DNA of 64,000 nucleotides from an uncultured Acidobacteriota bacterium. Its GTDB lineage: Bacteria; Acidobacteriota; UBA6911; RPQK01. Shown piece after piece: positions 440 to 64,000 of the stretch. A model generated the notes under the pieces. That model searched no databases, was not told where the DNA came from, and saw nothing but the letters and a program-made list of their open reading frames with translations. The translations under genes were made by a program, and so were the position numbers. The stretch is taken from positions 24,143 through 88,142 of the forward strand of contig CAYQYP010000061.1 of the NCBI GenBank assembly GCA_964421755.1, in the 5' to 3' direction. The stretch's first letter is position 1, and every line of letters starts with the position of its first letter.

Positions 440-600
440 ATCGGTTCTCTCCTGACGTCCAGGGCCCCCCAGCCACTTATGCAGATTGGACTGTCAACAG
501 CGGCGATGCTAGCACGGGAGAATCGTTCCGACAAGGCGCTTTGTGAGAGATTCACCGGCTGGCACTGACCGACTGACCTGACCTGCTGCCCACTGATCGT

Positions 601-727
601 GCCAACCGGGCCGGAAAGCGGCGGATTCTGAACCGCGAATCCGCCCTACGACCGCTCACTTTCGCACGACGGGTAGTCGTAGGGCGGATTCGCGGTTCAG
701 AATCCGCCGCTTTCCGGCCCGGCTGGC
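601..727. repeat. Copy A of a roughly 130-bp nested palindromic (REP/MITE-like) element. Each arm (CCAACCGGGCCGGAAAGCGGCGGATTCTGAACCGCGAATCCGCCCTACGAC / inverted partner) also contains a local hairpin.
   Basis: A long near-perfect inverted repeat is read directly in the sequence. Near-identical copies occur at 37101-37229 and 58651-58791, and a short version at 32725-32782. Confidence 0.8.
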
Positions 728-759
728 TCGTTCGAGATCGTCAGCAGTGTTATTCGTCA

Positions 760-11116: not shown

Positions 11117-11239
11117 GCCGAACCCCAAGGACGACAAGGACAACAAGGACAACAAGGACAAAAACTACAAAAGCCTGAAGCGATCTTCTGTCTTCGTCCT
11201 TGGTGTCTTTGTTGTCCTTGTTGTCCTTGGGGTTCGGCA
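11117..11239. repeat. Roughly 120-bp hairpin with about 45-bp arms built from tandem CAACAAGGA 9-mers (GAACCCCAAGGACGACAAGGACAACAAGGACAACAAGGACA … inverted copy).
   Basis: The long imperfect inverted repeat is read directly. It lies between the sulfatase stop and the GT2 gene start. Confidence 0.7.
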
Positions 11240-14060: not shown

Positions 14061-14094
14061 CCCTATCTTACGACGTTGAAGGCTTGGCAAGCTT

Positions 14095-14405
14095 TACGGA
14101 ACCGCAAACACAGCGCTTTTTGCGGAGTGCGCGGATTGTCAGGGTGCGCTCCGAAGCACTCGGGGTGGGGTATCGAGTTTTACAGAACCGCAAACGGAGC
14201 GTTTTTTGCGTAGTGCGCGGATTGTCACCGGAAGCGACGCCTCGCTCCGAGCCTGGTTGCTTACGGCCGCAATCCGCGCACTCCGCAAAAGACGCTCCGT
14301 TTGCGGTTCTGTACAGTTCGCCGACTCCATGGCGACGCCTGGGTCTGTTAGACGCTGAGCAGTCTTCAGTCCCAATCCGAAATCCGCAATCCGCAATCCG
14401 CAATC
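14095..14405. repeat. Intergenic repeat block. Three copies (two direct, one inverted) of a roughly 45-bp self-hairpin unit GAACCGCAAAC(A/G)GAGCG(C)TTTTTGCG(G/T)AGTGCGCGGATTGTCA, followed by CCGCAAT heptamer tandem repeats ending at the amidase stop codon.
   Basis: Units at about 14098-14142, 14183-14232 and (inverted) 14267-14318, then aatCCGaAATCCGCAATCCGCAATCCGCAATcag, all read directly. Confidence 0.75.
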
Positions 14406-31338: not shown

Positions 31339-32646
31339 TTAGCTGCCGCCTCCATCGCGGGCAGGCGCCGGTGCCTGATACGACTGGATGATCGCCTGGT
31401 AAACCGCAGCCCTGAATTTTGGCTGGAGGTCGACTTTCGCCGGCATCAGTTGAGTCATGAAAACGGCCACCAATTTTTCAACTGGGTCGACCCAGTAGGT
31501 CGTGTAGTAGGCGCCGCCCCATCCGAACGCACCTACACTGCCCGGTTCTCCCGCCTTTCCCAGGTGTTCGATTACCCAAAAGCCCAGACCGAAGCCGGTG
31601 TTCCCGTTATTGTGCAAGTCGCCCACATGGTTGACCGTCATGAGCTGGACGGTTTTCGGACCGAGAATCCGGGCCCCCTCGAGTTCTCCCCCATTGAGCA
31701 GCATCTGCAGGAACCGGGCGTAGTCCTCCGCGGTGGCAAGCAGTCCCGCGCCGCCTGAGTAGGATACCTGTGGCCCTTTCACGTAGTCATTTTCCGTGGC
31801 CTTCTGAACCAGCTTGATGCGTCCGTCCTCGCCTGATGCGTAGACCGGTGTGAAGCGACCGATCTTATCCTGCGGAAGGTAGAAGTGCGTATCGACCATC
31901 TTCAGCGGATCGGTGATCCGGCTTTTGATGAAATCGGCCAGGCTCATTCCCGATACCTTTTCGACGACGTGCCCAAGAATGTCCGTGTTGAAACCGTAGA
32001 TAAACTTCTCGCCTGGTTGCGAATCGAATGGCAGGCCAGCGAGTGCCTTGATCGCTTCTCCCACCGGCCTCGTCTGGTCGGCAAAATACCAACCGTGCAC
32101 ATCGGCTGACTTGTAAAGCTCCTCGGCAGGACCCGATCCGTAGGAGATACCGGCGGTGTGCGTCAGCAGATCGCGAATGGTTATTTCGCGTTTGGCCGGC
32201 ACCGTGCTGTAGCCCTGTGAATCTTTCTCCGAGGCTTTGACAGCGACCCTGGAATTCTTGAACTCGGGGACGAACTTTGAGACCGGGTCGTTGAGCAGCA
32301 GTTCCCCCTCTTCATACAGGATCATGATCGCAACACTGGTCAGGGCCTTCGATTGCGAAGCTATGCGGAAGATGGCGTCGGTCGGCATGGGCGTGTTTGC
32401 TTCCACATCGAGCTTTCCGATTCCTTCGTAATGGACCACCTTGCCTTGCCGGGCAACCAGCGTCACAGCGCCGGCGATCTTGCCATCACGAACGTATTCC
32501 TGCATGAGGGAACTGATTCGTCCCAGGCGTTCGGATGACATGCCGACTGTCTCAGCTTTCGCACGGGGCAGTTTCTGACCAAAGGCGGAGGTAACCAAAA
32601 CGAGCAGGACGACGCAAAGAACCGTTTGCTTCAGCGCTCTTTTCAT
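31339..32646 (-). CDS. Secreted serine hydrolase of the beta-lactamase / penicillin-binding-protein-like (class C, esterase) family.
   Basis: Signal peptide. Catalytic SxxK motif (ASQSKAL). Length and downstream YxN/HTxG-type motifs are consistent with family. Confidence 0.75.
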
Positions 32647-32724
32647 GCCGCCTATCTTACCGCTGCGGTGAAGCGGAGGACCAGACGTAATGGCGAGTGG
32701 CGCCCACTTATTGACGTTGCAACT

Positions 32725-32782
32725 GGGCCGAAAAGCGGCGGATTCGCCGTTCAGAATCCGCCGCTTTTCGGCCCGGTTGGCA
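32725..32782. repeat. Short copy (core hairpin) of the palindromic repeat family (GGGCCGAAAAGCGGCGGATTCgccgtTCAGAATCCGCCGCTTTTCGGCCC).
   Basis: Read directly. It lies in the divergent promoter region between the beta-lactamase-like and gluconolactonase genes. Confidence 0.75.
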
Positions 32783-32817
32783 ATCACTGTCAGTTGCGTT
32801 AGGCTCGTTTTATCCAC

Positions 32818-33682
32818 CATGAAACTCCAAGACATCATTTCCCCAGGAACCGAGTTCCAGGTGCTTGGTACAGGGTACGGATTCACAGAAGGGCCGGCGG
32901 CCGATGGGCTGGGCAACGTGTATTTTTCGGACGGACAAAACGACTCCATTCACTTTTGCGAGATCGGAAAGCCGATCACGCTCTTCGTCGCGGACAGCAC
33001 GGACGCCAACGGCATGATGTTCAACCATAAGGGAGAACTGCTGGTCTGTGAGGGCGCGGCTCATCGCATCGTCGCTATCGACGTCCAGTCCAGGGCGAAA
33101 CGCATTCTCGCCTCGCAAATCTATGGTACGCACTTCAACGAGCCAAACGACCTGAGCGTCGATGAGGTGGATGGATTTTACTTTACGGACCCTAATTATG
33201 GGCATCGCGGGCAAGCGACCGTAATGAAGGAGGACGCTTATTACTGCAGCCCAGAGGGCCGGGTCAGCCGCGTCTCTACTGTTTGCGTGAAGCCGAATGG
33301 TGTTATTCTCTCGCCGGACGGTAAAGTACTGTACCTTGCCGACAACCGCGGAGAGCGGATCTACAAGTATGACGTAACTGCACCTGGCCGGTTGACAAAC
33401 GAACGAGGGTGGATCGAGCTCGGGGCGCGACCCGACGGCATGACGCTTGATGTTCACCGGAATCTGTATGTCGGATGCGGAGATGCCGGTGTTAAGGTCT
33501 ACTCCCCCTCGGCTGAGTATATAGGCGCGATATCGGTTCCGTACGCGTCAAATCTGGTTTTTGGCGGCACTGATTTCACCACCCTTTTCATCACTTCCCG
33601 CGACAAGTTGCTCTCTATTCGTACCCGGGTCGAAGGAATCAGGCCTCCGGGAAGTGGGCAGCGAACGCGACTAACGGGATGA
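32818..33682 (+). CDS. SMP-30/gluconolactonase/LRE-family protein (six-bladed beta-propeller lactonase).
   Basis: [16 protein letters not shown] and NEPNDL…DGF motifs typical of gluconolactonases. Start at the ATG downstream of the repeat element. Confidence 0.75.
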
Positions 33683-33730: not shown

Positions 33731-35050
33731 ATGGCGAGTGACAATAAGCAAAATCGTCGTGAGTTTCTCATTGGATCCGGGGCGCTCTTGACCGCGGCCG
33801 TCGGCTTCCCGACGATCGTCCCCAGTAATGTGCTCGGGCGAGGCGCGGGGGTGGCTCCGAGTAACCAGGTGATTCTCGCCTGCATCGGAGTCGGCTGGCA
33901 GGGCACATCCAACATGGAAACCTTCCTCGAGGACAATAACGCCCGCATTGTTGCGGTCTGCGACATCGACAAGGAGCACCTGGAGAATGCTCGCGACATC
34001 GTCAACAAGGCCTACGGGAACAGCGACTGCCGGACCTTTCACAACTACGAAGATGTAATCGGGCGGCAGGATATCGATGCGCTTTCGCTCGGGCTCCCCG
34101 ACCACTGGCATGCCATTCCTGCCGTCGCGGCCGCTGCAGCAGGCAAGGATATTTACGGTGAGAAGCCATTGGCACACAACTGGGCGGAGGGCCGCGCCAT
34201 CTGCGACGCTGTCAAGCGCTACGGACGGGTCTGGCAAACCGGAAGCTGGCAACGCTCGATTGACAATTTTCGCTTCGGATGCGAGTTGGTGCTGAACGGG
34301 CGCATCGGAAAGGTCCATACGATCGAGGTTGGACTCCCCGATGGGCATACCGATTTCGCCGGAACCAGAGGTCTGGAAGACCCCGGCCCACCTCCGCCCA
34401 CCCTCGATTACGAACGATGGCTAGGTCCTGCCCCCTTCGCTCCCTACTGCGTGGCGCGAGTCCACAAGAACTGGCGGTGGAACCTCGATTACGCCGGAGG
34501 CCAGATTATGGATTGGGTCGGACATCATGTCGACATCGGCCACTGGGGCGCTGGTCTGGACTACGAGGGGCCTGTCAAGGTGGATGGCGAGGGAACCTAC
34601 CCAGACCGTGGAAAGCTCTGGAACACAGCTACCCGATACAGGGTCAATGCAAAGTATGCAAATGGGATCAAGATGATCATCGCCGGAGGCCACTCGGACA
34701 TCCGAAGCGGCACAAAATGGATCGGCGATCAGGGATGGGTTTGGGTAAATCGGGGAGCCATCGATGCCGAACCGAAGAGCCTGCTGAAGGTCAAGCTGGC
34801 ACCCGGCGACATTCACCTGTTTCGGTCACCCGGTCACACCCGCGAGTTCATTCAGTGCGTTAAGAGCAGGGGCCTGACTCTTTGTCCGGCCGAAGTCGCT
34901 CACCGTTCTGCGACTCCGGGATTCCTGGGCCAGATCGCAATGCTGACCGGCCGGGAAATCACGTGGGATCCGGTCAACGAGAAGATTCTGGGAGACCCTC
35001 AAGCCGAGCGATTGTTGTCCAGACCCATGCGCAGCCCGTGGCACCTTTAG
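33731..35050 (+). CDS. Tat-exported Gfo/Idh/MocA-family oxidoreductase.
   Basis: Tat motif NRREFLIGSGALLTAA. Rossmann motif CIGVGWQG. EKP motif. Confidence 0.8.
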   Translation: MASDNKQNRREFLIGSGALLTAAVGFPTIVPSNVLGRGAGVAPSNQVILACIGVGWQGTSNMETFLEDNNARIVAVCDIDKEHLENARDIVNKAYGNSDCRTFHNYEDVIGRQDIDALSLGLPDHWHAIPAVAAAAAGKDIYGEKPLAHNWAEGRAICDAVKRYGRVWQTGSWQRSIDNFRFGCELVLNGRIGKVHTIEVGLPDGHTDFAGTRGLEDPGPPPPTLDYERWLGPAPFAPYCVARVHKNWRWNLDYAGGQIMDWVGHHVDIGHWGAGLDYEGPVKVDGEGTYPDRGKLWNTATRYRVNAKYANGIKMIIAGGHSDIRSGTKWIGDQGWVWVNRGAIDAEPKSLLKVKLAPGDIHLFRSPGHTREFIQCVKSRGLTLCPAEVAHRSATPGFLGQIAMLTGREITWDPVNEKILGDPQAERLLSRPMRSPWHL

Positions 35051-35082
35051 GATTTTCGGCAGCACATATTTCGGAGAATAGT

Positions 35083-37095
35083 ATGAGGAATCGTAACGTT
35101 CCGCTGGTTATTTCGCTGATGCTGTTGACGCTGGTGTTTCCTGGTGGCCTGCTCGCCCTCCAACAGCCGGGGACGAGCCAGGAAGCCGTGAAGGCGCCTG
35201 CAACCCTTGCCGACTTGGAGCCGTTCCTGACTCAGGTCGCTTCCTACAAGTATGGTCAGGATCGCAAGCCGCTTGCCGCTGTAATTGAGTTCGTTCGCAA
35301 TGCATACGTATCTGGAAAAGAAGTACCCGAGTTAGAGAAGAGGCTTGTCCAAATGCTTTCGTCGGCTGGGACCGAGGATGGCAAGCGTTTCGTGTGCGAA
35401 CAGTTAAGCCTGATCGGGACCGCGGCCGCCGTGCCGGTTCTTTCCGGAATGTTGGCTGACCCCAAGAGTTCGGATATGGCCCGGTACGCGCTCGAGCGCA
35501 TCAGCGATCCGGAAGCCAGCGAGGCTCTGGTCAAGGCTTTGAGCTCTACAACCGGCAAGGTGCGAATCGGAGTGATCAACAGCCTGGGGCGACGCGGCGA
35601 TTCGCGGGCGCCGGTCGTTGGCGCTCTTAAACCGTTCATCTCGAACCGGGATGAGGACACGGCGGTCGCCGCAATAACGGCTGTCGGCTTTATCGGCAAT
35701 GTGGAGGCGGCCGTTCTGCTCGCCGATGCCCGTCGGAAAGCCTCGTCTTCTCTGCGGTTGAGGACCACAGATGCCTATCTGAACTGTGCCGAACGTATGG
35801 CGAAGGGTGGCGACAGGGGATCGGCGGTTAAGATCTACCAGGAGCTTAACTCGGCGCTCGAGACTCCCCTGGTCCAAATCGCGGCGCTTCGCGGCATCGC
35901 GGCCTTGGAAGGGGCGGGAGCCAAAACTGCGCTCGTGGCCGCGCTCGACAAGGGGCGTCCCGTCGTCCAGGCGGGAGTGGTCCGCCTGCTCGCGGCGCTG
36001 CCTGGAGAGGCGACGACCGGGCTGCTCGTGGAGCGCTACGGCAAATTGCCGCCGAGCGTCCAGGCCCAGGTCCTGTCGGCGCTCGTCGACCGGGGGGATC
36101 CCGGTGCCAAGGGACTGGTCCAGCAGGCCGCCAGTAGCCCGGAGCTCAATATTCGCGTGGCCGCCATCGAGGGAATGAGCAAGGTCGGCGACTCTTCGGC
36201 GGTCGTCTTCCTTGCCGAGCGTGCCGCAAACACCCAGGATCCGGAGAAGGGTGCCGCCCGCTTCAGCTTGTACCGGTTGGCTGGCGCCGATGTAGACCAG
36301 ACCATCCTCGGGAGCCTCGAGGTGTCGGACCCGAAAGTAAAGACGGAGCTGATTCGTGCTATCGGCGAACGCAGGATCTACTCGGGGATCGATGCCCTGC
36401 TCAAGGCGGCTGGGGATGCAAATTCCCAGGTGAGGAGGGAGTCATTCCGCGCCTTGAGGGAGACGGCGGGTGCGGAACAGATGCCTCAGTTGGTGTCGCT
36501 GCTCGTGGCCGCTAAGCCGGGTGCGGAACGCACCGATGCCGAGGCCGCCGTTGTGGCGGTCATTCGAAGAAGTGAGAACAGGACGCTCGTTGATCAGGTG
36601 GCCTCTGCATTGCCGAAAGCCACGGATCCTGAGGCCAAGTCTTCGCTCCTGCTGGTGCTCGGAACTGTCGGAAGTCGGTCGTCTTTACCGCTTCTGAAGG
36701 ATGCGCTGAAGAGCACCGAGGATGATGTCCGACGCGGAGCCATCCTGGGACTGTCACAGTGGCCTGGCCCCGAGCCTATTCCCGATCTGCTGGAAGTTGC
36801 CAAGAACGACCCGAGCGAGACCCATCGCGTGCTCGCTCTTCGGGCTTACATCCGCCTGGTCGCCCGGCCCCGCTTCAGAAGCCGTTCCGAAACTGCCAAA
36901 ATGCTCGGTGAAGCGCTGAAAATCGCCCAGGAGGATGCGGAGAAACGCGCCGTTCTGGCCGCTTTGCCTGATTTCGCGTCGCCCGAGGCACTGCAGTTGG
37001 CCGAAGGATTAAAAAAGGAAGCCAACCTCGCCGGCGAGGCGAACGTCGCGGTCGAAAAAATCAAGACCGCCCTGGCAGCCCAGCCGCAGCGCTAG
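35083..37095 (+). CDS. Secreted HEAT/PBS-lyase repeat protein.
   Basis: Signal peptide MRNRNVPLVISLMLLTLVFPGGLLA. Numerous roughly 30-aa repeats with A/V…R…A…ALG…GD periodicity. No CxxCH heme motif. Confidence 0.7.
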   Translation: MRNRNVPLVISLMLLTLVFPGGLLALQQPGTSQEAVKAPATLADLEPFLTQVASYKYGQDRKPLAAVIEFVRNAYVSGKEVPELEKRLVQMLSSAGTEDGKRFVCEQLSLIGTAAAVPVLSGMLADPKSSDMARYALERISDPEASEALVKALSSTTGKVRIGVINSLGRRGDSRAPVVGALKPFISNRDEDTAVAAITAVGFIGNVEAAVLLADARRKASSSLRLRTTDAYLNCAERMAKGGDRGSAVKIYQELNSALETPLVQIAALRGIAALEGAGAKTALVAALDKGRPVVQAGVVRLLAALPGEATTGLLVERYGKLPPSVQAQVLSALVDRGDPGAKGLVQQAASSPELNIRVAAIEGMSKVGDSSAVVFLAERAANTQDPEKGAARFSLYRLAGADVDQTILGSLEVSDPKVKTELIRAIGERRIYSGIDALLKAAGDANSQVRRESFRALRETAGAEQMPQLVSLLVAAKPGAERTDAEAAVVAVIRRSENRTLVDQVASALPKATDPEAKSSLLLVLGTVGSRSSLPLLKDALKSTEDDVRRGAILGLSQWPGPEPIPDLLEVAKNDPSETHRVLALRAYIRLVARPRFRSRSETAKMLGEALKIAQEDAEKRAVLAALPDFASPEALQLAEGLKKEANLAGEANVAVEKIKTALAAQPQR

Positions 37096-37100
37096 GTTCT

Positions 37101-37229
37101 GAGCAGGACCGACCGGGCCGCAAAAGCGGCGGATTCTGAAAAGCGAATCCGTCCTGCGACTGCTCGCCGTGCGAAAGCGATCGGTTGTAGGGCGGATTCA
37201 CTTTTCAGAATCCGCCGCTTTTGCGGCCC
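37101..37229. repeat. Copy C of the nested palindromic repeat element.
   Basis: GACCGGGCCGCAAAAGCGGCGGATTCTGAAAAGCGAATCCG…GGGCGGATTCACTTTTCAGAATCCGCCGCTTTTGCGGCCCGGTTGGCA. Confidence 0.8.
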
Positions 37230-37396
37230 GGTTGGCAACCATTTACCGCCAAGAGTGTAATCAACTGAACGGTTTCCGCTATTTAGGCGGCTTCTGCCCC
37301 CAACCTGCCGTCCGATTTGCATTTAGCGCCTCAACTGTTGATAATCTCCGTAATACCTGCGCGTTCTCTGGTACGCAACCTATTAATTGATAATCT

Positions 37397-44564: not shown

Positions 44565-44614
44565 CGGGGCAGCGGGCAGGAGGCAGCCGGCAGCGGGCAG
44601 CAGGCAGCAGGCAG
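44565..44614. repeat. GCAGCRG heptamer tandem repeat (about 7 units) immediately after the stop codon.
   Basis: GCGGGGCAGCGGGCAGGAGGCAGCCGGCAGCGGGCAGCAGGCAGCAGGCAG. Confidence 0.7.
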
Positions 44615-57435: not shown

Positions 57436-58565
57436 TTTGTAACGAGGCACAAAAGAAAGTCGACGAGCTCGTCGATGGAAGCCTTGTTGGGCGTGAACGC
57501 GACGAGTTCGAGAGGCATCTGCTCGGCTGTCCGGAATGCCGATCCTATCTCGATTGGGTTCGGTGGCTCTCGGTCGCGGCCCGGGCATTGCCGGAAATGG
57601 CCCCCGCCCGCGATTTCTGGCAGGACATTTCCGGTGAGCTCGCAGAACCTGGCGCGTCTGTGGTCTGTCTGGCTGACCACAAGGCGATCGGCTCTCGCCG
57701 GCGGTCCCCTCTTCCAGATATTCATCTGTACCGGCGGGCATTGATCCCCCGACTCGGGAAGGCCGCCGCCTTGGTCTGCATTCTCCTCGCGTTCGGTTTC
57801 GCCCTGATGCTTGTTTCGGACGAGCCAGTCGCGGAGACCGGGTGGAGCGTGAAGTGGGAGTCGCAGGGAGGCGCCCAGGAGCGCGGCGATCTCGCCGCCC
57901 AACTCAGCGTCGGCCAGATGATGGAGACGGACAGCCGATCCACGGCTCATATCGAGATTGCCAGCATCGGGCAAGTGGAGGTGCGGCCCAACAGCCGGGT
58001 ACGCCTGGTTGAAAGCCACGAAAACGAACAGCGCATGGCATTGGAGAAAGGCGTGATCAGGGCCCTGATATTGGCGCCGCCGCGCCTGTTCTTCGTGGAA
58101 ACGCCATCCGCGCTGGCTGTCGACCTGGGTTGCGCTTACGAGCTGAGCGTGGATGAAAATGGCAACGGCAAGCTTGAAGTAACGTCCGGTTGGGTCGCTC
58201 TGGAGTACGATGGCATCGAATCCCTGGTGCCCGCAGGAGCGGTTTGCACGTCCCGGCCGGGGCGAGGTCCGGGCACGCCGCATTTTCCGGACGCCGCGCC
58301 TGGCTTCAAGGCAGCTCTGGCAGAGATCGACGCCGGTTCTGCAGGAACCGCGGCGATTGAGGCCGCGCTGGCCGGCGCCCGGTTGCGTGACACCCTGTCT
58401 GTTTGGCACCTGTTCGCGCGAGTGGAACCGCGGGTGCGCCCGGCGGTTTACGACCGGTTGTCGGCTCTGGTGCCGGCCCCCGAGGGAGTCACCAGGGAAG
58501 GCGTGATGCAGCTCGACCCGACGATGCTTTCGCTTTGGAAAGGCGAGCTGCAGGCGCACTGGTAA
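57432..58565 (+). CDS. Anti-sigma factor with an N-terminal zinc-finger, a TM helix and a periplasmic FecR-like domain.
   Basis: HLLGCPEC motif. It overlaps the sigma gene by 4 bp. TM AAALVCILLAFGFALMLV. Confidence 0.7.
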   Translation: MICNEAQKKVDELVDGSLVGRERDEFERHLLGCPECRSYLDWVRWLSVAARALPEMAPARDFWQDISGELAEPGASVVCLADHKAIGSRRRSPLPDIHLYRRALIPRLGKAAALVCILLAFGFALMLVSDEPVAETGWSVKWESQGGAQERGDLAAQLSVGQMMETDSRSTAHIEIASIGQVEVRPNSRVRLVESHENEQRMALEKGVIRALILAPPRLFFVETPSALAVDLGCAYELSVDENGNGKLEVTSGWVALEYDGIESLVPAGAVCTSRPGRGPGTPHFPDAAPGFKAALAEIDAGSAGTAAIEAALAGARLRDTLSVWHLFARVEPRVRPAVYDRLSALVPAPEGVTREGVMQLDPTMLSLWKGELQAHW

Positions 58566-58572
58566 GGGAGGC

Positions 58573-58638
58573 GGCTGACCAGCTGACCGGCTGACCAGCT
58601 GACCGGCTGACTGGCTGACCGGCTGACCGGCTGACTGG
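58573..58638. repeat. GCTGACYR octamer tandem repeat (8 units) immediately after the anti-sigma stop codon.
   Basis: GCTGACCAGCTGACCGGCTGACCAGCTGACCGGCTGACTGGCTGACCGGCTGACCGGCTGACTG. Confidence 0.8.
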
Positions 58639-58650
58639 CGACTGAAACCC

Positions 58651-58791
58651 TGCCAACCGGGCCATAAAGCGGCGGATTCTGAACCGCGAATCCGCCCTAC
58701 GACTGCTCGCCATTCGAAACCACTCGGTCGTAGGGCGGATTCGCGGTTCAGAATCCGCCGCTTTTCGGCCGGGTTGGCAGGGGTCCCCGGT
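58651..58791. repeat. Copy D of the nested palindromic repeat element, between the convergent anti-sigma and leuD genes.
   Basis: About 95% identical to copy A (601-727). Confidence 0.8.
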
Positions 58792-58793
58792 CG

Positions 58794-59387
58794 CTAGGTC
58801 CCCATCCGCTGTTCGTAGGCCCGGATCTTGTCCTCGTGCTCGAGCGTGAGGCCGATGTCGTCCAGTCCGTTCAGCAGGCAGTGCCGGCGAAACGGATCCA
58901 CTTCGAAGCAGAATCGCAACCCCGAGCCATCCGAGATCTCCTGCTTCTCCAGATCGACAGTGAGTCGATAGGGTCCCTGAGAGGCTTTTGCCCGCCGGAA
59001 CAGGTCCGATACCTGCGCGTCGGATAGCTTGATCGGGAGGATGCCGTTCTTGAAGCAGTTGTTGTAGAAAATGTCCGCGTATGAGGGGGCGATGATTGCC
59101 CGGAACCCATAGTCGAGCAGAGCCCAAGGCGCATGCTCACGCGAAGACCCACACCCGAAATTGGAGCCGGCAAGGAGAATCGCAGATCCGTTGGCCTCGG
59201 GCTTGTTCAGCTCAAAGTCAGGATTGGGGCTGCCGTCATCTCTGAATCTCCAGTCGAAGAAAAGAAACTCACCGAAGCCGGTGCGCTCGATTCTTTTCAG
59301 GAACTGCTTGGGAATAATCTGGTCGGTATCGACGTTGACGCGATCCAGCGCAGCCACGATTCCCGTGAGTTTCGTAAATGGTTGCAT
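58794..59387 (-). CDS. leuD: 3-isopropylmalate dehydratase small subunit.
   Basis: LeuD family sequence (…[21 protein letters not shown]…). Confidence 0.85.
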
Positions 59388-62498: not shown

Positions 62499-62570
62499 GC
62501 TTCCTCCTTGGGTGCAAAAAAAGCGGTGTCTAAAACTATCAAAATCACGCCCAGCTGGCAAGTTTGGGGC

Positions 62571-62612
62571 CGAATGCGGAGTGCGGAATGGCGGAGTGCG
62601 GAGTGCGGAATG
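62571..62612. repeat. TGCGGAGTGCGGAATGG-type tandem repeat upstream of leuA and downstream of the MFS gene, related to the 14095-14405 repeat family.
   Basis: GAATGCGGAGTGCGGAATGGCGGAGTGCGGAGTGCGGAATGG. Confidence 0.65.
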
Positions 62613-62700
62613 GGGAACCAAAGCGGGCATCGCGGTTGTCCCTGGTGTCCTTGAGCTCCTTGGGGTTCTTGGGGTCCGACGCTCGACTCCCCGAAAAGAC

Positions 62701-63970: not shown

Positions 63971-64000
63971 TGACAACTGCGCACTGCGCACTGCCTACTG
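63971..64000. repeat. CGCACTG heptamer repeat (CAACTGCGCACTGCGCACTGCCTACTG) truncated by the window end. It is homologous to the repeat at 1493-1576.
   Basis: Compare CAACTGCCCACTGCCCACTGCCCACTTCC…CTTCCTACTGG at 1493. Confidence 0.6.

Follow-up and report, generated by a model that had tools for sequence, protein, structure and literature searches.

A REP/REPIN family of an uncultured, probably acidobacterial lineage and its cognate RAYT gene in close relatives

REP sequences of the GTAG class are recognised by a short hairpin with the tetranucleotide GTAG at its foot (PMC3733652), and the name REPIN is given to two inverted REPs that fold together into one hairpin (PMC3116915, PMC3337134). 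Doublets whose GTAG ends point inward are the 'TT' ('tail-tail') dimers of the Di Nocera nomenclature (PMC3733652). For the E. coli REP/BIME system and its transposase TnpA_REP (RayT/YafM; 4ER8), described by Ton-Hoang 2012 and Messing 2012, we follow the account given in PMC6006769, which assigns the WQ..R stretch of the protein to GTAG recognition and sets out the roles of the motif residues. The RAYT gene is deleted in some E. coli strains, in which the REPs persist (PMC3733652). A 2013 survey recorded GTAG REPs in Proteobacteria, Cyanobacteria, Chloroflexi and the PVC group, and from Acidobacteria it reported only TIR-flanked 'TIRYT' transposases (PMC3733652).

Here we analyse palindromic repeats in a 64-kb stretch of DNA, referred to below as the window. 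The repeats are very probably REPINs, that is, non-autonomous elements made of two inverted REP units. They belong to a genuine, abundant REP/REPIN family whose cognate RAYT is identified in close relatives, and the host lineage of this family is probably acidobacterial.

Copies in the window and their anatomy

The window contains three full copies and one collapsed copy (Table 1), and a profile HMM built from 80 family members found no further copy in it. An earlier note on this DNA had described four intergenic copies of a nested palindrome, with two arms that pair over about 50 bp and each fold locally. All four copies are confirmed to within a few bases of their described positions, all are extragenic, arm pairing spans 53-58 bp, and every arm has its own local stem of 9 bp with a loop of 8 nt. 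A repeat finder recovers the window copies as direct and inverted repeats of each other, the arms measuring 56-59 nt at 88-95% complementarity. Every copy contains the 13-mer AAGCGGCGGATTC twice, on opposite strands, which accounts for all eight of its occurrences in the window, and the 33-mer GTCGTAGGGCGGATTCGCGGTTCAGAATCCGCC has four matches at up to three mismatches, where shuffled sequence gives an expectation of zero. The predicted structure is also borne out by folding as single-stranded DNA, with full copies reaching -66 to -78 kcal/mol (z = -13 to -18).

Each REP unit consists of GTAG, a hairpin (GGCGGATTC-N8-GAATCCGCC) and a conserved tail of about 20 nt (GCTTTnCGGCCCGGTTGGC). In a full copy two such units are inverted, with the GTAG ends directed inward, toward a 29-nt centre. 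The left half runs from the outer tail (t/c)GCCAACCGGGCCGnAAAGC through the hairpin GGCGGATTC-TGAACnGC-GAATCCGCC to CTAC; the centre follows (GAC...GTC), and the right half comprises GTAG, the hairpin GGCGGATTC-GCnGTTCA-GAATCCGCC and the outer tail GCTTTnCGGCCCGGTTGGC(a/g). In both arms the stem is immediately preceded on its 5' side by GTAG, which is also present in the REP singlets that flank the RAYT genes described below. Because every REP carries its conserved tail, the stem of the doublet reaches 53 bp. The centre is asymmetric (consensus GACCGCTCGCCGTGCGAAAGCACTCAGTC, with the GNRA-like apex GCGAAAGC), so each copy has an orientation, given in Table 1 as the direction of its centre with respect to the family consensus; copies 3 and 4 run one way and copy 1 the other.

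Copy 3 is a loop variant (TGAAAAGC/ACTTTTCA) in which both arms are altered. The collapsed copy has neither the centre nor the two GTAG/CTAC feet, and profile positions 4-29 are fused to positions 84-128. Judged from its sequence, it is a deletion derivative, a full element minus the 54 nt between two direct GGCGGATTC nonamers. Comparable collapsed copies occur at several metagenome loci (L013, L075, L121, L003, L090).

Table 1. Coordinates of the repeat copies and of associated features. Positions refer to the window unless a locus is named.
Feature	Position	Strand	Description
REPIN copy 1	600..728	-	profile; folding -77.5 kcal/mol, z -17.7
Copy 1, left half	outer tail 600-619; REP hairpin 620-645; CTAC 646-649		hairpin GGCGGATTC/TGAACCGC/GAATCCGCC
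Copy 1, middle and right half	centre 650-678; GTAG 679-682; REP hairpin 683-708; outer tail 709-728		
Collapsed copy (copy 2)	32720..32782	.	both outer tails and one hairpin, GGCGGATTC-GCCGTTCA-GAATCCGCC
REPIN copy 3	37108..37236	+	profile; folding -65.8 kcal/mol, z -13.3
REPIN copy 4	58651..58779	+	profile; folding -75.2 kcal/mol, z -18.0; pairing reaches 58648-58782
Tandem array (CGGCTGAC) x 8.5	58572..58639	+	adjoins copy 4, outside the REPIN
Tandem arrays	763-788, 1495-1574, 14373-14405, 44568-44614, 58572-58639, 62568-62617, 63976-63994		
Subfamily with other outer ends	L017 3446-3556, L058 3448-3558, L062 2263-2376, L106, L046		

Copy 1 is located in a gap of about 540 nt that follows a plus-strand reading frame ending at about 250 and is bounded on its other side by the 3' end of a minus-strand gene, as called in metagenome contigs. 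Copy 2 separates divergent genes for a secreted beta-lactamase-like protein and an SMP-30-like protein. Copy 3 begins about 13 nt past the stop codon of a 737-aa ORF (34882-37095), with about 160 nt to the next gene on the same strand, and its neighbours are in tandem. Copy 4 lies between convergent genes, an anti-sigma gene (FecR/zf-HC2) ending at 58565 and leuD ending at 58794. Long ORFs that nominally cover window copies, such as 58489-59127, are artefacts of reading through the palindrome. ORFs that run through palindromic repeats are found at 58489-59127 (-), at 14068-14403 (-) and in the 5' part of 31339-32949 (-); all three, very likely spurious or called too long, are a possible source of error in automatic annotation.

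Intergenic regions of the window are rich in tandem arrays of 7-8-nt units (CNGCTGAC, ACTGCSC, ACTGACN, CAATCCG, GAATGCG). Such arrays are also present at many metagenome loci (e.g. L104, L091, L086), often as inverted pairs flanking a spacer or a REPIN. An array lies within 100 nt of 36 of 79 REPINs, compared with 1.45% of random 100-nt windows, and in the array beside copy 4 the number of units varies between samples of the same population in a VNTR-like manner. The window also contains a second, unrelated cluster of nested palindromes (14086-14322) in the gap between two minus-strand genes. Its unit of about 52 nt (AGCTTTACGGAACCGCAAAC...TTGCGGAGTGCGCGGATTGTCA) is present as two direct copies and one inverted copy beside a (CAATCCG) x 4.7 array, and it may represent another repeat family. 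Between two plus-strand genes (11117-11238), (CAAGGACAA)4 faces (GTCCTTGTT)4 in 9-nt units with hairpin arms of 49 nt, and a related array is located at 62628-62677.

Family size, pairing and placement

Scanning metagenomes with the pattern GTAGGGCGGATTC-N8-GAATCCGCCGC matched at least 120 loci, and the matches listed all came from one sample series (Ga0105091/92/104, Ga0209077/819/593), in which the window DNA itself is found at 99.6-99.98% identity. Clustering on long flanks resolved at least 121 distinct sites. Among the matches listed, the doublet is the predominant form, with 88 of the 121 sites full length, and about 10 of the 33 short sites are merely clipped by contig ends. The unique full copies among the matches listed, 80 in all, were oriented and aligned (alignment A1). 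Their length is 129 nt in 76 cases and 130 nt in the other four, and the spacer is 29 nt in 76 of the 80. The earlier note had suggested a mobile element or a genome-wide motif, and the family occupies at least 121 distinct sites in the source population. A scan of a genome collection with the hairpin pattern gave at least seven matches, those listed being mostly chance hairpins in other taxa; a full copy was present in the Acidobacteriota MAG MFD03899.bin.1.231 (locus L005). The probable placement of the window's lineage in this phylum follows from that MAG, which shares the REP family.

Across the 80 copies the 53-bp stem is 97.4% paired. Double-sided changes number 110, compared with 45 in shuffles, and none of 500 shuffles reached the observed value. 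These changes are concentrated in the REP loops and at one tail position, as in columns 36/101 (CG 62, AU 17), 37/100 (AU 31, CG 28, GC 8, UA 3) and 17/121 (AU 48, UA 22). When the partner is slid by 1-3 columns, pairing falls to 29-46%. The REP stem and GTAG are essentially invariant in sequence: stem columns are 98-100% conserved, and at the GTAG/CTAC pairs (columns 49-52 with 85-88) the commonest bases are found in 78-80 of the 80 copies. Such invariance is consistent with recognition by a protein, and loops and part of the tail that change only when the other arm changes are consistent with a requirement for the long hairpin. From the alignment we read this as two layers of constraint, one probably sequence-specific (GTAG and stem) and one acting on pairing only (loop and tail).

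Strong hairpins would also be expected of a host-encoded structured motif that was never mobile, such as an intrinsic or bidirectional terminator or a small-RNA gene family. The GCTTTT that follows the inner hairpin on both strands and the many copies just past stop codons fit such a motif, which we nevertheless consider very improbable. A consensus terminator scan makes no call on the copies and flags neither copy 2 nor copy 3 on either strand, as the T run is only four long; the inner hairpin is followed only by TTTT or TTTA, and nothing T-rich follows the long hairpin. Rfam 15 gave no match at the gathering score in the whole window, and the matches at the E-value threshold were eukaryotic or viral microRNA precursor hairpins with 34-42 bits, where the gathering scores are 70-80. 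The copies occur in both orientations (44 versus 36), one of them is missing at orthologous sites in relatives, and the REP units are linked to a RAYT, as described below. These scans give no support to terminator, insulator or small-RNA function as the primary identity of the repeat, which the earlier note had put forward beside mobility. CRISPR and integron attC were dismissed on the copies being dispersed, not arrayed.

The copies lie outside real genes, against a crude ORF coverage of about 91%, and the 22 cases of nominal overlap with an ORF are explained by read-through ORFs or by starts called too far out. Gene contexts are convergent in 17 cases, tandem in 30 and divergent in 4, and the copies are biased toward gene 3' ends.

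There are no target-site duplications, the lengths of direct repeats at the ends being equal to the null obtained by re-pairing flanks between copies. About one third of the copies have extra, copy-specific complementarity beyond the conserved ends. Small size, inverted ends, many copies and intergenic location would suit a classical MITE, a deletion derivative of an insertion sequence with a DDE transposase, which has TIRs, is mobilised in trans and makes target-site duplications. This origin is extremely improbable and largely refuted: the direct repeats at the ends exactly match the null distribution, the element is palindromic throughout and not only at its termini, and the repeat has the GTAG-plus-hairpin signature and flanks a gene for a Y1 (HUH) and not a DDE enzyme. 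Of the 'mobile miniature element' in the earlier note, the REP branch stands, with GTAG hairpins, inverted doublets and RAYT-flanking copies, and the classical MITE, together with the duplications it would leave, does not.

Mobility over evolutionary time is suggested by copy 4, which is absent from the orthologous leuD/anti-sigma spacer in three related genomes (L140, L141, L142). Their LeuD orthologues are 87-90% identical and they share the leuC-leuD / anti-sigma / ECF-sigma synteny. The spacer without the element measures 32 nt in L141 and L142 and 121 nt in L140, and all five versions from the window's population carry both the copy-4 REPIN and the octamer array. The presence of the element at this site is lineage-specific, and the copy-4 spacers are too diverged to provide an exact empty site defining the insertion junction. 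The joined flanks of every copy, compared with all loci, gave no true empty site, as the searched loci had been selected for carrying the element.

Contigs with window DNA stop at or near repeats, indicating that the repeats fragment assemblies. L008 and L009 both end at window position 814, just beyond copy 1; the end of L103 falls at 58598, within the octamer array next to copy 4, and that of L010 at 1495, at another tandem array. The elements also create spurious ORFs, and recognising REPINs therefore improves annotation.

Some loci share the REP cores and differ in their outer ends, forming a subfamily (Table 1) that has CAAGGGCTGGCC... instead of CCAACCGGGCC... The copy at L055:8352 sits inside a perfect additional palindrome of at least 33 nt, and those at L083, L087 and L033 have 11-12 additional paired bases, with GAGCTC common to them.

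A RAYT gene beside the same REP in related genomes

The acidobacterial tyrosine transposases from the supplement of PMC3733652 were used as tblastn queries. These queries match an ORF in L005 (6831-7367, 179 aa) right beside the element. A REP singlet (GTCGTAGGGCGGATTCgttttgcaGAGTCCGCCGCTTTTCGGCCCGGTTGGCGAG) precedes the ORF by 66 nt, and a full REPIN lies 18 nt past its stop codon. The lone REP folds locally. The protein scores 172.9 bits against NCBIfam NF047646 (REP-associated tyrosine transposase, equivalog; cutoff 80), and E. coli TnpA_REP (PDB 4ER8) is its closest solved relative (E=1.7e-34). The aligned motifs of the two proteins comprise the HUH motif (DHYH versus EHMH), the WQxRxWEHxIR stretch and the DYIxxNP tyrosine motif. 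With Pfam Y1_Tnp the E-value is above the threshold of E<=0.001, as it is for many of the listed homologues. The L005 RAYT is of the E. coli type, being about 40% identical to YafM and only 23-27% identical to the acidobacterial TIRYTs.

A closer relative among the protein matches is L132, from GCA_040961035.1. It is syntenic with L005, sharing a treY-like gene (79-81% amino-acid identity) followed by genes for 60 and 115 aa. Its RAYT is decayed: the frame is shifted by 1 nt, and an internal deletion of 162 nt has taken out the region from WQ to the tyrosine; the pseudogene is flanked upstream by the exact REP variant of the window and downstream by a REPIN with an enlarged spacer. In L134 one REP directly joins an L005-type left flank to an L005-type right flank, with no REPtron. 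In L133, which belongs to the window's metagenome series, a solo REP marks the RAYT locus and a different neighbourhood follows. The syntenic locus is found with an intact RAYT (L005), with a decayed RAYT (L132) and as solo-REP remnants (L134 and L133). The REPtron arrangement, with the same REP flanking the RAYT gene, is present in L005 and, around the decayed gene, in L132, and is absent from the window. The earlier note had proposed looking for a transposase association elsewhere in the genome; physical linkage of this REP to a RAYT gene is seen in related genomes. In agreement with the REP-RAYT pairing rule, the more distant, unrelated RAYT of L131 has on its flanks a GTAG-hairpin REP of its own, different from the one described here.

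L133 (1027-1079) and L094 (2383-2511) have the same GH97-side flank, 99.3% identical over 5.9 kb. In L133 a REP connects this flank to RAYT-locus genes; in L094 the connection is a full REPIN, and the left flank there is a different one. Either the RAYT was removed by a rearrangement mediated by the REP, or the assembly is chimeric at the repeat; the latter could apply because L094 has the same right flank beside a full REPIN. Another Y1-transposase-like gene from the same metagenome population (L066 9757-10230) is nearest to the Koribacter 'TIRYT' aba2776 (E=3e-20). It lies 8.6 kb from the nearest REPIN and has no flanking REP of the family.

With E. coli YafM and five acidobacterial TIRYTs as tblastn queries, no RAYT was detected in the 64-kb window. 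The same queries plus the L005 RAYT detected none in 1.2 Mb of REPIN-bearing contigs from the source population, the only match being the unrelated gene in L066. The top protein matches include no close RAYT orthologue from the source metagenomes, although short fragments would rank below these matches, so that this result counts for little. Given these searches and the solo REP in L133, the copies in the window's genome may be immobile orphans that no longer move.

Taken further, this would make the repeats orphan or domesticated hairpins, of REPIN origin and immobile after loss of the RAYT, which host-level selection keeps intact as mRNA 3'-end stabilisers, as aids to Rho-dependent or bidirectional termination or as binding sites for nucleoid proteins. 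We consider this unlikely, though deserving of more weight than a host-encoded motif. In three of four related genomes the RAYT at the syntenic locus is decayed or lost, which points that way, as does the lack of a RAYT in any sequence retrieved from the source population. Between copies the arms are much better conserved than the centres (94% versus 68% identity), and 45 of 80 copies (56%) have flawless internal stems, with zero mismatches in 50 internal pairs, at centres that differ by 32%. The bias to gene 3' ends would suit the proposed roles as well. However, the REP stem and GTAG are invariant in sequence beyond what pairing needs, which suggests a specific protein such as a RAYT, and the collapsed copy and four others lie in promoter regions between divergent genes, places in which a role at the 3' end would be meaningless. 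The absence of a RAYT, moreover, refers to the window and the retrieved contigs, which are part of the genome, and the window's own genome may still have one.

It is doubtful, and somewhat less probable than the orphan hairpins just described, that the window lineage has lost its RAYT and yet keeps more than 100 REPINs with near-perfect 53-bp stems while their centres drift. If this were true, the host or a hairpin-templated repair process would now maintain the REPINs, giving a natural case of REPINs that persist and stay conserved after transposase loss, in a phylum without previously described canonical GTAG REPs.

Proposed mechanism and comparison with known systems

If the family is a REPIN family, as we think very probable, the likely mechanism of its movement can be drawn by analogy with E. 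coli TnpA_REP. A single-copy HUH/Y1 RAYT would bind the REP hairpin in single-stranded DNA exposed at replication and would read the GTAG adjacent to it. It would then cleave and rejoin the DNA, and the whole doublet would be copied or moved to new extragenic places with no target duplication. That a RAYT moves these elements is suggested by this analogy. The absence of target-site duplications is expected of IS200/IS605-type chemistry. Arm divergence and centre divergence are not correlated (Mantel r=0.02), which would not be expected from simple replicative descent.

Imperfect palindromes of about 127-155 bp that are intergenic and co-transcribed with their neighbours are also known as ERIC/IRU and Correia (NEMIS) elements, and the present family resembles them in being palindromic, intergenic and of similar size. 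We know of no GTAG-REP substructure in ERIC and of no link between ERIC and a RAYT. This family lacks both the TA target duplications and the 26-bp terminal repeats of Correia elements.

The GTAG REP superfamily shares with our repeats the GTAG tag, the stem-loop body and the organisation in dimers (PMC3733652). Some of its families, such as that of T. roseum, lie in small outer palindromes, CCGSSCC...GGSSCGG (PMC3733652), that are reminiscent of the CCGGGCC...GGCCCGG tails described here. As far as they are presented in PMC6006769, the E. coli REPs and TnpA_REP likewise have GTAG 5' of an imperfect palindrome and a REPtron organisation. In E. coli BIMEs, according to that account, Y and Z REPs form heterodimers, and there are variable linkers and IHF sites, whereas the elements in our family are homodimers with a centre of conserved length.

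The REPINs of Pseudomonas fluorescens SBW25 and its relatives (PMC3116915, PMC3337134) have the same plan, with two inverted REPs, a short spacer and one long hairpin. They too show compensated arm changes, extragenic location, hundreds of copies and no target duplication, and a single cognate RAYT gene flanked by the same REPs. The host, however, is probably a member of the Acidobacteriota here and belongs to the Gammaproteobacteria there, and the RAYT is of the E. coli type and not of the Pseudomonas type. Our elements further differ in having GTAG directed inward, a REP tail of about 20 nt, a 53-bp stem and an unusually uniform length of 129 nt.

REPINs themselves are a well-known class of bacterial repeats, and what is new here is the host range. 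To our knowledge, REPIN-RAYT systems have been studied, as long-lived and vertically inherited replicators, almost entirely in Proteobacteria. One small clade with intact, decayed and absent RAYT genes offers a natural series for following the fate of REPINs after transposase loss, and the occurrence of a GTAG REPIN family of the canonical kind, along with a RAYT of the E. coli type, in a probably acidobacterial, uncultured lineage extends the host range known for such systems.
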